Source: Candidatus Omnitrophota bacterium (lineage in GTDB: Bacteria > Omnitrophota > Gorgyraeia > Zapsychrales > JANLHA01). From it: DNA of 64,000 nt. Under the pieces are notes generated by a model. That model was not told the origin of the DNA, ran no database searches, and was given only the letters and a program-made list of their open reading frames with translations. Shown here in pieces: positions 2,078-43,724 of the stretch (its first letter is position 1; every line of letters starts with the position of its first letter). Where the stretch lies: assembly GCA_022711395.1 (NCBI GenBank), contig JAKLFA010000001.1, positions 387,277-451,276 of the forward strand, in the 5' to 3' direction. A program made the position numbers and the translations under genes.

Positions 2078-2938
2078 ATGTTGCTGAGAATCCAGAATTT
2101 GAAAAAGTATTTTTATAAGGGATCCGGTCTTTTTACGGCATCGCGGGTGCATGTCAAGGCCGTCGACGGGGTGTCTTTGGATGTTCACGCCGGTCAGCAT
2201 GTGGGCCTGGTGGGGGAATCCGGTTCAGGAAAGAGCACCCTGGCACGGCTGATTGTGCGTTTGTATGAACCCGAGGAGGGGACGGTGATCTGGGACGGGC
2301 GCGGGGGCTTTTGCAAGAAACGATCACACGATGCCCGGCGTGATGTTCAGATGGTGTTTCAGGACCCCTACAGCAGCCTGGATCCGCGGTTTACGGTGCG
2401 GCGGATACTGCTGGAGGCTCTTTCGCTTTGCGGTGAGAAGATCTCCCCAAAAGAGCAAACAGGGCGCATGCAATCGGTCCTGGCTTCCGTTGGCCTTGAG
2501 GAAGGGGCTTTGGGCCGATTCCCTCATGAATTCAGCGGAGGAGAGCGCCAGCGGGTCGCGATCGCGCGGGCGCTTCTTATGAAGCCTCGGCTTTTGATCC
2601 TTGATGAGGCGGTCTCTTCTCTGGATGTGCTGGTTCAGCAGCAGATCGTGGAACTTTTGCTGCAGCTGCAAAAAGATTATTCCCTGACATACTTATTTAT
2701 TACGCACAATCTGAAGATCGTCCGTAAACTTTGCAAAAGGATCGCCGTGATGTATCGGGGAAAGATCGTTGAGACGGCAGAGACCGACGAGCTTTTCAAA
2801 AACCCGCTACATCCTTACACGCAGAGGCTTCTGGCGGCGGCCATGGACTACCGTGTTCACGAAACGGCATGGATCGAAAATTTCACGGAAAAATTTCAAT
2901 TAATTGATAAAGGGAACAGCCATTTTGTGTTAGAGTAA
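2078..2938 (+). CDS. ABC transporter ATP-binding protein (OppF-like).
   Basis: Walker A GESGSGKST, signature FSGGERQRVAIARAL, Walker B LLILDEAVSSLD. It immediately follows the OppD-like gene. Confidence 0.85.
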   Translation: MLLRIQNLKKYFYKGSGLFTASRVHVKAVDGVSLDVHAGQHVGLVGESGSGKSTLARLIVRLYEPEEGTVIWDGRGGFCKKRSHDARRDVQMVFQDPYSSLDPRFTVRRILLEALSLCGEKISPKEQTGRMQSVLASVGLEEGALGRFPHEFSGGERQRVAIARALLMKPRLLILDEAVSSLDVLVQQQIVELLLQLQKDYSLTYLFITHNLKIVRKLCKRIAVMYRGKIVETAETDELFKNPLHPYTQRLLAAAMDYRVHETAWIENFTEKFQLIDKGNSHFVLE

Positions 2939-2958
2939 AATTGTCTTTATAGAAAGGG

Positions 2959-5289
2959 ATGTTGTTTATGAGTGATAATTTTTGGCGGAGGATAAGCTTA
3001 ATATTCGGGATCATTGCCTTAGGAGGGATCTTTTCGCTGGCGATCCTGATGGCGCATCTTGAGATCAAGGACCTCGATCTCTGGCTTCATATCGGAGTGG
3101 GCCGCTTCATCGTTGAGAACGGGTTTCAGGTCCCGCAGGTGGATTTTCTTTCTTCCACGGTTGCCGGCACGCCGTGGAACAATCATGAGTGGCTGTTCCA
3201 GGTCTTGGCGTATCTCATTTATCAGGACGCGGGGCCTGACGGGCTGATCACGATGCAGGTGGTCCTGATTACGGTTACACTTTTATTGCTGGCTTTTCTG
3301 GGATACAGCAGGGAGAGGCAGTTCTTATCGGTGTTCGGGCTGCTGTTCGTCGTTTTTGTTTACATCGGCAGGTTCACGATCCGGCCTGATCTTTTCAGCC
3401 TGTTCTTTTTTACGCTTTATATTTTTATCATGGCGATGTTTTTGGACCGCAAATGGACGATCCCCGCTGTTTTTCTCATCCAGGTGATTTGGACCAATAT
3501 GCATGGATTCTTTTTTTTCGGTCCGGTGATCATCCTTTTGTCGCTGGTCTCTGAATGGAGCAAACGCCATTTGAAATTGCCTTGGGAGTGGAATTCGATC
3601 TCCCGGCTTGAAGATGATGAATACGCTCATCTGAAGTGGATGCTTTTAGTCGCCATGCTGGCTTGTTTCATCAATCCTGGCGGGATCAAGGGGGCGTTGT
3701 ATCCGATTTTTATTATGTTCCAGATCTCTGGCGATTCGAAGATATTCTTCGATCATATCGTGGAGCTGCAGAGGCCGATCACGAAAGAGACCCTGTTCTC
3801 TTTGGGGGAGAACTCTCAGTACCGTTTGCTTTTGCTAATCTCGGCGGTGAGCTTTTTCTTTAACCGGAGAAAGATGGATATCGGGGTTTTTGTTTTTTGG
3901 CTGATCTTTCTGTTCTTTTCCCTGGTCGCGGCCCGCAACATGGTCTTTTTTTCTTTCGCTGCTTATTTGGCGTTCATGAACAACGCGATGACACTGTCGC
4001 TTAAAGACCTCGTGCCGCTCACGTTGGAGGACAAAAAATTCAGTTACATCGCGGGAGCGTTCGCCAAGGTCCTGATCCTCATCGCGGCTTTGCAGTTCGT
4101 GATCGAGCTGACCGGCAACGGATATTTTGATTTTGACAAATATGAACGCAAAAGCGAGTTCGGAGGGGTGTCGCAGCGTAATTTTCCCGACAAGGCCGTG
4201 GATTTTCTGGTTGATCACCGCGTCAAGGGAAACATTTTCAATGATTTTAACAGCGGCGCGTATTTAGTGGGAAGGGTGTTCCCGAACATCAAGGTGTTCA
4301 TAGACGGCCGGACGGAAGTCTACGGGCCGAAATTTTTCTCGTATTATAAAACAATTTGGATGGATCAGAATTTGGATGAGTTTGACAAGGCCGTCGAAAA
4401 ATATCATCTGACGATCGCCTTGATCAACACGGTCAGCGGTGAGGGTCCGCCTAAGCTTTTGAGGCACCTTTATGAGTCAAAGGATTGGGTGCCGGTCTAT
4501 CTGGGCCATGACGCGGTGATTTTTCTAAAGAACACCCCGGAAAACGCTCAGTTGATCGCTGAAACGGCCCTTAACCTCGAGCACTGGCAGATTGAGCCTC
4601 TTGACATTTACCGTTTGGGATCCCGCAAGGTCGTTCCTTATCAGCATATGCACCGGGCCTTTATTTTACGGTCGATGGGGCTCAATGAGGCGGCCAAGCA
4701 GGAACTTGAGGAAGCCCTGCATGCCTATCCGGCGTTTGATGAGGCGATGGGGCTCCTCGGGGACATTTACGCCGAGGGAGGGGATTTTGAAAACGCGTTT
4801 TATTATTTCCGTACGGCGTTGACGTTTGACGTTGGAAATTATGACCTTCGTTTGAAGATGGCAAAGGCCTATGACCGATTGCAAATGTATGATTATGCCA
4901 TCCAGCAATACCGCCGGATGATCGAAGATTCTCCTCAGAAGCCTAACGCTTATTTTGAATTTTCCCGCACGTTACTGCGCCAGGGCGATTTCAAGGAAGG
5001 CCTTGCTGTTCTTGAAAAGGCCAATGGCCTTCAGCCCGATAATGTCCGCGACCTGATCGTGCTCGGTGATCTTCTTGCGGAGAAGGGCAAATACCCGGAG
5101 GCTGTTGAAGTGTATCATCGGGGCGTGGGCAAAGCCAAGGACCAGGCTGAGCTGAACGTGAAGATGGGCGATGCGTTCGAGAAGATGGGAAATATGGAAA
5201 AAGCCCGGGAGTCCTGGTCTGCCGCTTTTGAAGCGGATCCTGAATATGAAGAGGCGAAGCAGCGTCTGGAGTCGTCGTCGGCAAAGTAG
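2959..5289 (+). CDS. Polytopic membrane protein with C-terminal TPR repeats, architecture like a GT-C-fold glycosyltransferase (TMTC/PMT/ArnT-like).
   Basis: About 480 aa containing more than 10 predicted TM helices. The last 300 aa are TPR-like repeats (…AYFEFSRTLLRQGDFKEGLAVLEKA…, …LGDLLAEKGKYPEAVEVYHRG…). The glycosyltransferase assignment is by architecture only. Confidence 0.5.
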   Translation: MLFMSDNFWRRISLIFGIIALGGIFSLAILMAHLEIKDLDLWLHIGVGRFIVENGFQVPQVDFLSSTVAGTPWNNHEWLFQVLAYLIYQDAGPDGLITMQVVLITVTLLLLAFLGYSRERQFLSVFGLLFVVFVYIGRFTIRPDLFSLFFFTLYIFIMAMFLDRKWTIPAVFLIQVIWTNMHGFFFFGPVIILLSLVSEWSKRHLKLPWEWNSISRLEDDEYAHLKWMLLVAMLACFINPGGIKGALYPIFIMFQISGDSKIFFDHIVELQRPITKETLFSLGENSQYRLLLLISAVSFFFNRRKMDIGVFVFWLIFLFFSLVAARNMVFFSFAAYLAFMNNAMTLSLKDLVPLTLEDKKFSYIAGAFAKVLILIAALQFVIELTGNGYFDFDKYERKSEFGGVSQRNFPDKAVDFLVDHRVKGNIFNDFNSGAYLVGRVFPNIKVFIDGRTEVYGPKFFSYYKTIWMDQNLDEFDKAVEKYHLTIALINTVSGEGPPKLLRHLYESKDWVPVYLGHDAVIFLKNTPENAQLIAETALNLEHWQIEPLDIYRLGSRKVVPYQHMHRAFILRSMGLNEAAKQELEEALHAYPAFDEAMGLLGDIYAEGGDFENAFYYFRTALTFDVGNYDLRLKMAKAYDRLQMYDYAIQQYRRMIEDSPQKPNAYFEFSRTLLRQGDFKEGLAVLEKANGLQPDNVRDLIVLGDLLAEKGKYPEAVEVYHRGVGKAKDQAELNVKMGDAFEKMGNMEKARESWSAAFEADPEYEEAKQRLESSSAK

Positions 5290-40933: not shown

Positions 40934-41174
40934 CGGAGAGTTTAAGATTGCAGATGGTTTGCGATAGGTCGCGCTTGTCTGGGGGGACGCGCTTTTAAAG
41001 CCTTTCCGAGTGCAGTAATGCGTTAATATATAAGGGGTTATCAAAGTTGGCTTTTCCTACCGATTTTAACAAAGAAGTTCTGGAAAACCTCTTTACAGGT
41101 TTCTAAAATTCAATTATAATTAGGTTCACTTTTTGATTTATATTAGTATTAATTATATAAATATTTGGATTTTC

Positions 41175-41248
<74 letters not shown>

Positions 41249-41281
41249 GATTTGTAGAGAGTTCTTTTAGATTTTGCTTTC

Positions 41282-41358
41282 GGGCGCATAGCTCAGCTGG
41301 TTAGAGCGCTGCCCTCACATGGCAGAGGTCGAAGGTTCGAGTCCTTCTGTGCCCACCA
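41282..41358 (+). tRNA. tRNA-Val (CAC) with encoded CCA.
   Basis: Acceptor GGGCGCA/UGUGCCC, anticodon loop CUCACAU, T-loop GGUUCGAGUCC, 3' ACCA. Confidence 0.85.
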
Positions 41359-41389
41359 TCTTTTAACGATTGAACTGAAAGAAGGCATT

Positions 41390-42121
41390 GTGGCTGGATC
41401 CAATGTAGTGGAGACGCTCCGAAAATTAGTCGGGTTGCAGAAGTTTGATAATGAGATTTTCATGCTCAATCGAGAATTGGAGGAAAAGCCGGTCGCATTA
41501 GAGACCTTAAAGCAGGAGTTTGAACTTAAAAAAAGCAAGCTCAAGGATTTGGAAGCACGCTTTAAGAGTGTTCAGGTTGAGCGTAACACTCTGGAAGGGG
41601 ATTTGGCCGCCAAGGAAGAAAATATTAGAAAAGCCGAATCTCAATTGGCCCAGCTCAAGACAAACAAAGAATATCATGCCAAGATCACAGAGATCGAGGG
41701 TCTGAAGGCTGAAAAGTCTATGATTGAAGAAAAGATCCTCATGTCATACGATAAAGCCGATGAAGTGAGGGTCCAGGTTGAATCTGAGAAAAAAGTTGTC
41801 GCCGAGCAGGAGCAAGATTTTCAGTCAAAAAAGAAAGTCTTGGATGATGAGATCAAGGGCATACAGGGCCGAGTGGGCCTTTTGAAGGCTGAGCGGGAAA
41901 AGCTTCTTCCGGACCTGGATAAGGCCCTCTTGGCAAGGTATGAACGCATTTTGCATAATCGTGAGGGGCTGGCTGTTGTGCCGGTCAAGAATCAGGTCTG
42001 TGGCGGCTGTTTCATGAACATTCCAGCGCAGGTCATCAATGAGATCAAGAAACACGAGGAAATGATCAGTTGTGAGATTTGCGCCCGTATTCTTTATCTT
42101 GAGGAAGAACTGGGGTTGTGA
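41390..42121 (+). CDS. Coiled-coil Zn-ribbon protein (COG1579/DUF164 family).
   Basis: Long coiled coil ending …VCGGCFMNIPAQV…EEMISCEICARILY (C4 zinc ribbon). It sits in the conserved position upstream of rnhA. Confidence 0.75.
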   Translation: MAGSNVVETLRKLVGLQKFDNEIFMLNRELEEKPVALETLKQEFELKKSKLKDLEARFKSVQVERNTLEGDLAAKEENIRKAESQLAQLKTNKEYHAKITEIEGLKAEKSMIEEKILMSYDKADEVRVQVESEKKVVAEQEQDFQSKKKVLDDEIKGIQGRVGLLKAEREKLLPDLDKALLARYERILHNREGLAVVPVKNQVCGGCFMNIPAQVINEIKKHEEMISCEICARILYLEEELGL

Positions 42122-42576
42122 AAAGTTTAGAGATCTATACTGATGGGGCGTGCAGCGGAAATCCCGGTCCTTCTGGGATCGGATATATCATCCGTCAGAA
42201 TGGAAAAGTGGTCGGTGAATTTTCCCATTTTATCGGGCAGGCGACCAATAATATCGCTGAATATACGGCGCTTATTTATGCGCTGCAGGAAGCCTTGATC
42301 TTGAAGGCTTCGGATGTTGAGATCCGTGCCGATAGCGAGCTTTTGTGCCGGCAGGTATTGGGTGAATATCAGGTCAGGCACGAGAATATCAAACCGCTCT
42401 TTGATCAGATCCAGCATTTGGTAAAAGGTTTTCGTTCGTTTAGGATCAAGCATGTTCCGCGGACGGAGAATCGAGATGCCGATAGGCTGGCAAGAGAAGG
42501 ACTCAAACAAGGGCAGGCGAAGGTGTTTGCCTCGGCACAACAGGCCGGGGAGGAAAGTCCGAGCTCCGAAGGATAA
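42118..42576 (+). CDS. rnhA: Ribonuclease HI.
   Basis: GTG start overlapping the upstream stop. MKSLEIYTDGACSGNPGPSGIGYII…NNIAEYTALIYAL…ADSELL…KHVPRTENRDADRLAR contains the DEDD catalytic residues. Confidence 0.9.
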   Translation: MKSLEIYTDGACSGNPGPSGIGYIIRQNGKVVGEFSHFIGQATNNIAEYTALIYALQEALILKASDVEIRADSELLCRQVLGEYQVRHENIKPLFDQIQHLVKGFRSFRIKHVPRTENRDADRLAREGLKQGQAKVFASAQQAGEESPSSEG

Positions 42577-42913
42577 TGCACCCTGCTAATCCAGGGCCTG
42601 TGCACCACGTGGGGTGTACGGCGGGCCTTTTACAAGGTTTGCCGTGGACCCGGCATGGTTCACGGAGGATCAGAGCAACAGTGACGATGTCCCTGCAAAG
42701 GGAAGTGAAACGGGCAATCTCTGCATGGAGCAATGCCAAATAGGAGGACACATCCGGAAACGGAGACGAAGCGATCCGCTTCGTGTATGATCCTCGGGTA
42801 GGCAGCAAGAGTTCATGGGGCAACCCGTGAAGTGAGTTGAATAAACACCGCCTCGTTAGCGCATAAGCTTTTTTCTGCGAGGTCACAGAACTCGGCTTAC
42901 CGTTTGCCCTTGT
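42508..42913 (+). ncRNA. rnpB: RNase P RNA, bacterial type A.
   Basis: 5' conserved region GAGGAAAGUCCGAGCUCC. GCAAUGCCAAAUAGGAGG (cf. E. coli GCAAGGCCAAAUAGGGG). CGGGUAGGCAGCAAGAG. 3' ACAGAACUCGGCUUA. The P4 strands covary (5' AAGUCCGAG with 3' CUCGGCUU). P1 helix ends CAAGGGCA/UGCCCUUG. Confidence 0.85.
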
Positions 42914-42971
42914 TCTTATTTTAGATGAAATTGAAAATGAAATAGGTTGTTTTAAATGAGGAGGGTTTAAC

Positions 42972-43724
42972 ATGTCAGGACATTCAAAATGGGCAACCAT
43001 CAAGCATAAAAAGGCTGCTGCCGATGCCAAGCGCGGTGCGTTGTTTACAAAGTTGACAAAAGAGATCACGGCGGCCGCGAAGGCCGGTGGCGGGGACACG
43101 GAATCGAATATCCGTTTGCGTACGGCGATCCTGCGCGCGAAGGCCTATAATATGCCCAGTTCCAATATCGATAATGCTGTTAAAAAGGGAACAGGGGAGC
43201 TTCCCGGTGTCATTTATGAAGAGGTTGTTTTTGATGCGTATGCTCCGGGCGGAGTGGCTCTGTTAATCGAAGGGCTGACCGATAATAAAAATCGCACGAC
43301 AGCGGAGATCCGCAATATCCTTAACAAAAAGAATGGCAGTATGGCCGGTGCCGGTTCAACATCATGGATGTTCACGGCGAAAGGCGTCATTACGGTCAAG
43401 AAGGATAACGCTTCTGAAGACCAGCTTATGGAAGTCGCGCTTGAAGCCGGGGCTGAAGACATCGGAACAGAAGGTGATCTTTTTGAGGTCACTTGTGAGC
43501 CAGCAGCTTTCAATCAGGTCAAAGTTGCTTTGGAAGCAAAAAATATTGTAACGGAATCCGCTGAATTGACAAAGATCCCGAGTTCGACCGTGCGAGTTGT
43601 TGGAAACGATGCCAAGCAGGTGCTGGCATTGATGGAAGTCCTGGAAGAGCATGAGGACGTTCAGGCGGTTCATGCCAATTTTGATATCCCCGATGAAGAA
43701 ATGGAGCAGATCTCTGCTGAGTAA
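42972..43724 (+). CDS. yebC: YebC/PmpR-family transcriptional regulator.
   Basis: MSGHSKWATIKHKKAAADAKRG…, a canonical YebC N-terminus. Confidence 0.9.
   Translation: MSGHSKWATIKHKKAAADAKRGALFTKLTKEITAAAKAGGGDTESNIRLRTAILRAKAYNMPSSNIDNAVKKGTGELPGVIYEEVVFDAYAPGGVALLIEGLTDNKNRTTAEIRNILNKKNGSMAGAGSTSWMFTAKGVITVKKDNASEDQLMEVALEAGAEDIGTEGDLFEVTCEPAAFNQVKVALEAKNIVTESAELTKIPSSTVRVVGNDAKQVLALMEVLEEHEDVQAVHANFDIPDEEMEQISAE

Follow-up and report, generated by a model that had tools for sequence, protein, structure and literature searches.

The RNase HI gene of a Candidatus Omnitrophota bacterium runs into the gene for the RNA subunit of RNase P, so that 68 nucleotides (nt) serve both genes on the same strand. 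The two genes, rnhA and rnpB, lie in a 64,000-nt stretch of contig JAKLFA010000001.1, called the window here, whose first letter is position 1 in all coordinates below. Each gene is an ordinary member of its family, the type 1 RNases H and the Rfam family RF00010, respectively, and it is their organisation that is unusual. A literature search of incomplete coverage found neither a published rnhA–rnpB overlap nor a description of RNase P from Omnitrophota. The overlap is genuine. We consider it probable that it arose by loss of a spacer, that it leaves RNase HI with a C-terminal tail set as a by-product of the RNA, and that rnpB is co-transcribed with rnhA and released by processing. The elements concerned are as follows.

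42118–42576, + strand: rnhA, the RNase HI gene, with a GTG start and 152 amino acids (aa); residues 1–130 form the catalytic domain and a 22-residue tail follows.
42508–42573, + strand: the C-terminal tail of RNase HI, QGQAKVFASAQQAGEESPSSEG, nearly all of it encoded by the 5′ region of rnpB.
42509–42915, + strand: rnpB, a full-length class-A RNase P RNA, by Rfam RF00010 (RNaseP_bact_a).
42509–42576, + strand: the 68-nt overlap of rnhA and rnpB, from the boundaries of the open reading frame (ORF) and of the Rfam match.
42509–42519, + strand: 5′ strand of helix P1, from RF00010.
42522–42528, + strand: 5′ strand of P2, from RF00010.
42530–42550, + strand: the whole P3 hairpin, from RF00010.
42552–42563, + strand: 5′ strand of P4, GGAAAGUCCGAG, translated as (G)EESPS and paired with 42885–42899.
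42564–42567, + strand: 5′ strand of P5, from RF00010.
42574–42576, + strand: the rnhA stop codon, TAA, in the junction after P5.
42885–42899, + strand: 3′ strand of P4, ACAGAACUCGGCUUA, from RF00010.
42902–42911, + strand: 3′ strand of P1, with a U-rich tract next to it.

The match of rnpB to RF00010 covers the entire model (positions 1–367 of 367, not truncated) with a score of 143.6 bits against a gathering score of 100, at an E-value of 3.7e-44. The conserved strands of P4, GGAAAGUCCG... and ACAGAA.CGGCUUA, are both present and able to pair. An earlier note on this DNA had proposed that rnhA runs into a real RNase P RNA gene and that the last 22 residues of RNase HI are encoded by rnpB sequence. 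Both proposals stand, as the covariance model sets the 5′ end of rnpB at 42509, upstream of the rnhA stop codon. The pairing that it drew for the ends of P1, 42508–42515 with 42905–42912, is present, and so is the covariation that it described for P4, in the form of CCGAG facing CUCGG. Its position for the stop codon, within P2/P3/P4, has to be corrected: the codon lies 3′ of both P4 and P5, in the junction ahead of the next helix. The overlap therefore also takes in most of the junction 3′ of P5, and the last A of the TAA is the first base of the helix that follows, 42576–42580 paired with 42722–42726. We take this helix to be P7 and the junction before it to be J5/7. Within 42509–42576 the sole coding is the 3′ end of the rnhA frame, which enters from upstream, and an RNase P RNA whose mature form began at P1 would hold just the last 22 rnhA codons. 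Judged by its reading frames, the rnpB RNA is not a dual-function RNA with an ORF start of its own.

That the overlap is an artefact, whether an ORF over-extended through an assembly error or a degenerate rnpB, is hardly credible. Gene callers do over-extend ORFs over rnpB, and have done so with yebC in one related locus (284 versus about 250 aa), but in the window no in-frame stop occurs between RNase HI residue 130 and 42574, the same structure is found in about ten independent assemblies from different projects, and rnpB is full length, above its gathering threshold and covarying. The Rfam E-value and the recurrence in independent loci together exclude chance as the source of the overlap. 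A 198-aa ORF on the minus strand (42503–43099) also spans rnpB and is probably spurious.

The catalytic domain that rnhA encodes is complete without the tail. By Pfam, residues 2–129 match RVT_3 with 91.1 bits (cut-off 21.6) and RNase_H with 65.1 bits (cut-off 25.8). D9, E48, D72 and D122 form the invariant DEDD set in two alignments of RNase HI proteins and are taken to be the active-site carboxylates typical of the family. The nearest NCBIfam equivalogs are the Rv2228c-type bifunctional, haloarchaeal and thermoproteotal RNases HI, and the protein scores below the cut-off of every one of them (118.9 versus 326, 116.9 versus 300 and 104.8 versus 140 bits), which by sequence comparison makes it related to these named groups and a member of none. 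Homologues of solved structure, 3u3g, 4e19, 3hst and 2ehg, align to residues 2–131 in sequence matches to the Protein Data Bank (E-values to 1e-26) and stop near query residue 130–134. An AlphaFold2 model built from 67 homologues shows a β-sheet with helices, with a mean predicted local distance difference test (pLDDT) of 96–99 over residues 1–130; the mean falls to 63 over residues 131–140 and to 41–45 over residues 141–152. We conclude that rnhA specifies a complete and apparently active RNase HI, and the model suggests that the tail, which includes the peptide ...VFASAQQAGEESPSSEG, is an extra and probably disordered appendage. In some of the best-scoring representatives of 50%-identity clusters, 270–930 aa long (P0121–P0133 and others), RNase HI domains occur in tandem, in two or three copies.

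The tail recurs widely among homologues. With the full protein as query, 106 of the 120 best matches end in ...[G/A]EESP[S/G]S-x-G; the tail adds to the score and biases such a search toward proteins that bear one, and we therefore repeated it with residues 1–130 alone. The full tail in the same frame, ...GEESPSS-x-G, was then found in 88 of the 120 best matches. A single match, P0079, reads P4 in the +1 frame (...GRKVRAPKDHAPC). About 12 enter rnpB yet stop early, as read by eye from their C-terminal sequences: P0274, P0277 and P0291 end in ...DA, P0290 ends just before EESP, and P0055 and P0076 also belong here. About 14 end ahead of rnpB, and a few others are probably partial genes at contig ends. 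The peptide GEESPSS is the universally conserved 5′ strand of P4 together with P5, read in one frame as GAG GAA AGU CCG AGC UCC, P4 being GAGGAAAGUCCGAGCUCC. The earlier note had suggested looking for conservation of the tail in RnhA orthologs, and the outcome is divided: the tail is there in 88 of the 120 closest homologues, but sister lineages within the Omnitrophota and several relatives nested among the tail-bearers end about 20 residues earlier, with an rnhA stop that abuts or precedes P1.

At the DNA level we compared 29 related loci with Rfam. Genome and metagenome scans gave at least about 25 relevant loci among the matches listed, from which no phylum-wide frequency of overlap can be derived. 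In 26 of the 29, an RNase HI gene of this type has rnpB as its direct downstream neighbour; the two genes share a strand in 25 of these and lie on opposite strands in L089. The Rfam boundaries give an overlap of 67–82 nt in nine independently assembled loci besides the window (L002, L004, L161–L166 and L168), and the junctions fall into the following states.

Overlap of 67–70 nt in the frame of the window: the window, L002, L004, L161, L162, L163, L165 and L168.
P4 motif within the ORF, with the contig ending ahead of a full rnpB match: L169.
Overlap of 82 nt in frame +1: L164.
Overlap of 67 nt with the stop within an enlarged P3: L166.
Overlap of 1–6 nt: L001, L003 and L085.
Gap of 1–13 nt: L082, L088 and L008.
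Gap of 37–186 nt: L092, L086, L084, L167, L081, L090, L170, L009, L091 and L083.

The nearest genome records are metagenome-assembled genomes of Candidatus Omnitrophota, and Ignavibacteria contribute one locus, which has a 78-nt gap; the assignment to Omnitrophota follows these records and one named protein (P0288). Because lineages further away show non-overlapping states, the 68-nt overlap appears to be derived, and to stand at the far end of a graded shortening of the spacer.

Outside the overlap group, an RNase HI gene of this type also stands beside rnpB, with spacers of 37–78 nt, in L009 and L091 (Ignavibacteria-like), L086, L090, L092 and L089 (the last with rnpB on the opposite strand), and the linkage of the two genes may be older and broader than the Omnitrophota. 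Among distant RNases HI, the tails of P0144, P0239 and P0250 translate P4 either in the third frame (...GKSGL...) or in frame 0, where the stop comes later (...EESPGSKRQGAG), so read-through into rnpB may have arisen more than once. In L170, a close relative, a spacer of 71 nt (1414–1484) lies between rnhA and rnpB. It contains a hairpin with a T-run behind it (AAATTCC-TGC-GGAATTTTT) as well as a copy complementary to the 5′ strand of P1 (GACCTGCT), and may have originated by local duplication or rearrangement.

Within the shared DNA, the changes seen across loci follow the RNA. In a MAFFT alignment of ten loci, all 70 cells of P2 are paired and five of its seven positions show double-sided changes, while for P1 pairing is kept in about 105 of 110 cells. 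The CCGAG/CUCGG of P4 in the window is replaced in L168 by the compensatory CCGGG/CCCGG, which turns ...SPSS into ...SPGS in the protein. Even the stop codon takes part: in L004 it is changed from TAA to TAG, matching a U-to-C change in the partner strand. The only invariant residues of the tail, GEESPSS, are those encoded by the invariant RNA nucleotides of P4. The two main families of tails, ...KQAKVFAS... and ...GQDGRSDA..., are one and the same pair of helices, P1–P2, read one base apart, so the proximal tail has no conserved protein sequence, and a P3 of 23 nt as against 21 or 24 nt restores P4 to the common frame despite this difference. Taken from these alignments, the conclusion is that RNA constraint prevails in the DNA that rnhA and rnpB share. 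The earlier note had held that the overlap constrains both genes. The RNA does dictate the tail, but for the reverse, the protein constraining the RNA, there is no solid evidence, and the sole hint is that a stop codon is kept at its site as TAA, TAG or TGA.

An open frame through the 5′ region of rnpB might be taken as a sign of selection for the tail, and we rejected it as such. Between P1 and P4, the three frames hold 9, 7 and 16 stops in 21 sequences; all are nearly stop-free, non-overlapping lineages included. Once the junction stop is lost, an ORF in frame 0 or +1 would thus automatically grow by about 20 codons.

Upstream, rnhA and rnpB belong to a compact unit whose other members are these.

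41092–41120, + strand: sigma-70-like promoter upstream of the tRNA pair, TTTACA and TATAAT with a 17-nt spacer, 11 of 12 matches.
41175–41248, + strand: tRNA-Met (CAT).
41282–41358, + strand: tRNA-Val (CAC).
41390–42121, + strand: gene for a 243-aa CT398/CdsZ-like protein that combines a coiled coil with a C4 zinc ribbon (Pfam Zn_ribbon_9 and CT398_CC; NCBIfam CdsZ-like below cut-off).

The TGA stop of the zinc-ribbon gene overlaps the GTG start of rnhA (GTGA). The order tRNA, tRNA, CT398-like zinc-ribbon gene, rnhA, rnpB, yebC, ruvC, ruvA recurs in the Omnitrophota-like loci examined (window 41092–42915, L001–L004, L008, L082–L085, L088 and L161–L170). From its position, the site at 41092–41120 is a candidate promoter for the whole unit from the tRNAs to rnpB. 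On the + strand, a tool scan detected nothing promoter-like from 41960 to 42509. In a relaxed scan that accepted at least 8 of 12 matches, none of 11 overlapping and 6 abutting loci has a sigma-70-like site within 60 nt upstream of rnpB. The same scan detects promoter-like sites upstream of rnpB in the gap loci L086, L084 and L081; that of L086, TTGAAA and TATAAT set 18 nt apart, ends 6 nt from the start of rnpB. Ahead of the tRNA pair, 13 of 17 related loci have a site that matches the consensus at 9 or more of 12 positions, which indicates that the sigma-70 consensus applies to these organisms. We also considered TTGGCA, from the Leu-Ala codons of an ADxLA motif, as a −35 element of rnpB and rejected it, since it is mis-spaced and, at 16 nt from P1, too close. 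These scans suggest a single transcript of tRNA-Met, tRNA-Val, the zinc-ribbon gene, rnhA and rnpB, with processing, as the likely arrangement, and the transcriptional coupling of two RNases that the earlier note had read from the overlap is plausible on the same grounds. RNase P RNA would share this putative transcript with two of its own tRNA substrates.

It is possible, though in our view doubtful, that rnpB is instead nested but independently transcribed from a promoter in the 3′ part of rnhA, and that the overlap has no regulatory consequence. Loci that retain a spacer can carry a promoter-like site at the canonical distance (L086), the 5′ end of Escherichia coli rnpB is a transcription start, and AT-rich ...AIKK... 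codons lie just upstream of P1 in several loci. Against these points stands the relaxed scan, in which none of the 17 overlapping or abutting loci, the window included, has a hexamer pair of 8 of 12 matches within 60 nt, while strong sites are found by the same scan ahead of the tRNAs in the same organisms; the rejected TTGGCA is too close to P1 for transcription to start there.

At the other end of rnpB, a U-rich tract (e.g. GCCCUUGUUCUUAUUUU) directly follows the 3′ strand of P1 in every locus of the overlap group (window 42912–42925, L002 and L161–L168). It may be a termination or 3′-processing signal with P1 as its stem; a tool scan found no conventional terminator hairpin at 42912–42925 of the window.

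The course of events that we favour starts from rnhA and rnpB adjacent on one strand, with a spacer between them or with the rnhA stop abutting P1. Loss of the spacer and then of the junction stop would have let rnhA read 22 codons into rnpB, as far as the TAA after P5. The tail would be set by the RNA and have no conserved protein function, a disordered and dispensable appendage. rnpB would have no separate promoter and would form the 3′ end of the tRNA-Met/tRNA-Val/zinc-ribbon/rnhA/rnpB transcript, from which RNase P RNA would then be freed by endonucleolytic processing.

Several observations pull the other way. Frame 0 through P4 is found in 88 homologues and another frame in one. The P3 that is 2 nt longer occurs in the very family whose frame is offset upstream, and the frame of P4 is thereby kept. 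All nine loci that share the frame retain a stop at the site (seven TAA, one TAG and one TGA), and the stop is absent in two of four related loci whose ORF misses that codon in frame; the codon is TCA in L164 and CAT in L166, and TAA is kept in L167 and L170. By a hand-calculated Fisher's exact test, this contrast (9/9 versus 2/4 loci) has a value of about 0.08. On the side of transcription, a non-consensus promoter may lie inside rnhA, and a promoter-like site inside the zinc-ribbon gene (41930–41959; TTGGCA, 18-nt spacer, CATAAT, 10 of 12 matches), about 160 nt upstream of the rnhA start, may drive a shorter rnhA–rnpB transcript. Finally, the polarity that makes the overlap derived rests on the distribution of states and not on a resolved species tree.

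The first of these observations bear most directly on the proposal that selection maintains the tail as a working part of RNase HI, an acidic, serine-rich peptide that might act in stability, regulation or interaction with RNase P or another partner and for whose sake the overlap is kept. The one prevailing frame in the domain-only search, the return to frame 0 in the GQDGR family despite its different P1–P2 frame, and the retained stop in three codon forms all speak for it, and the C-terminal tail of Sulfolobus tokodaii RNase HI reportedly contributes to stability. We nonetheless regard a functional tail as quite unlikely. Its invariant residues coincide with invariant RNA nucleotides and the rest follows RNA covariation in two frames; its pLDDT is 41–63; it is repeatedly lost or truncated in close relatives and absent from sister lineages; and only about four independent events preserve the frame. 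On a neighbour-joining tree with parsimony, there is one family switch and P3 has changed its length in frame about three times. With so few events shared ancestry remains a sufficient explanation, and we rejected frame conservation as evidence of a functional tail. Shared ancestry can explain the retention of both frame and stop. Among relatives nested in the tail-bearers, the tail has been lost or uncoupled through a nonsense codon in P3 (P0274, P0277 and P0291), an insertion in P3 (L166), a frameshift (L164) and a new spacer (L167 and L170). The tail itself is most likely without function.

Processing, if it takes place at P1, would cut inside the rnhA frame and leave a stop-less mRNA. One consequence could be negative coupling between RNase P RNA production and RNase HI synthesis: cleavage at the 5′ end of rnpB would be so efficient that ribosomes seldom translate the tail, the overlap would exist only on paper, and the RNase HI produced from stop-less mRNA would be tagged and degraded. 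Since rnpB has no detected promoter of its own, a mature 5′ end at P1 requires processing inside the ORF, and loci whose stop abuts P1 would face the same problem. This chain of argument is, however, purely inferential; the keeping of the stop at its site in three codon forms suggests that ribosomes reach it, and RNase P RNA may tolerate 5′ extensions. We rate such negative coupling as very unlikely.

A bolder combination joins these elements: the ribozyme would have no transcription unit of its own and be cut from the 3′ end of the rnhA mRNA inside the reading frame, and the retention of frame and stop would reflect selection on a switch between RNase HI and ribozyme. We think this unlikely. 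If it were true, each transcript could yield either full-length RNase HI, from ribosomes that unwind P1–P5, or RNase P RNA together with a stop-less rnhA mRNA. The two RNases would then be coupled by a built-in, mutually exclusive choice, and the transcript would bear tRNA substrates of RNase P as well.

A protein gene that reads through P4, the catalytic-core helix of a universal ribozyme, is a rare arrangement, and it is found throughout a group of related uncultivated bacteria and not as a one-off. The biogenesis of RNase P RNA becomes a testable problem here, its gene being apparently promoterless and starting inside an ORF. The locus is also a natural experiment on the conflict between coding and RNA-structure constraint in shared DNA, which the RNA wins here. 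There are consequences for annotation as well, as many RNase HI proteins in databases, among them 88 of the 120 clusters nearest to the domain in our search, end in ...GEESPSS-x-G, which is P4 in translation, and gene callers also mis-extend neighbouring ORFs over rnpB. In L162, for example, yebC (3140–3994) is called with 284 aa, against about 250 aa elsewhere, its start having been stretched into rnpB (2885–3204) as a gene-caller artefact.

Among known systems, the protein is closest to the type 1 RNases H of the group formed by Sto-RNase HI, Halobacterium RNase HI and the N-terminal domain of Rv2228c, into which its best matches in the Protein Data Bank and NCBIfam fall and with which it shares a domain of about 130 residues and the invariant DEDD set. 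In contrast to 3u3g, 4e19, 3hst and 2ehg, the window protein carries the 22-residue, low-confidence C-terminal extension encoded by rnpB. The RNA resembles E. coli M1 RNA and RF00010 in its full-length match to the model, in the conserved P4, and in the order of P1, P2, P3, P5 and the helices that follow, and, as in other class-A RNase P RNAs, its helices are kept by compensatory changes; it differs in that its first 68 nt also encode the C-terminal 22 residues of a protein and the stop codon behind them. In E. coli, rnpB forms a transcription unit by itself and begins at the transcription start, whereas in the window no promoter-like site directly precedes rnpB. In Thermus, rpmH and rnpA, the gene for the RNase P protein subunit, overlap. 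The likeness to the window is that a component of RNase P shares DNA with another gene in a compact genome; the Thermus overlap, however, joins two protein genes in different frames, while in the window a protein gene lies over the RNA subunit. A further parallel is offered by the 3′ untranslated region (3′UTR)-derived small RNAs of enterobacteria, which are processed from the 3′ end of an mRNA. Like these, the rnpB of the window would lie at the 3′ end of a coding transcript, apparently lacks a promoter-like site directly ahead of it and may start inside the upstream ORF, but it encodes an essential ribozyme and not a regulatory RNA, its overlap covers a catalytic-core helix, and its release by processing is inferred.

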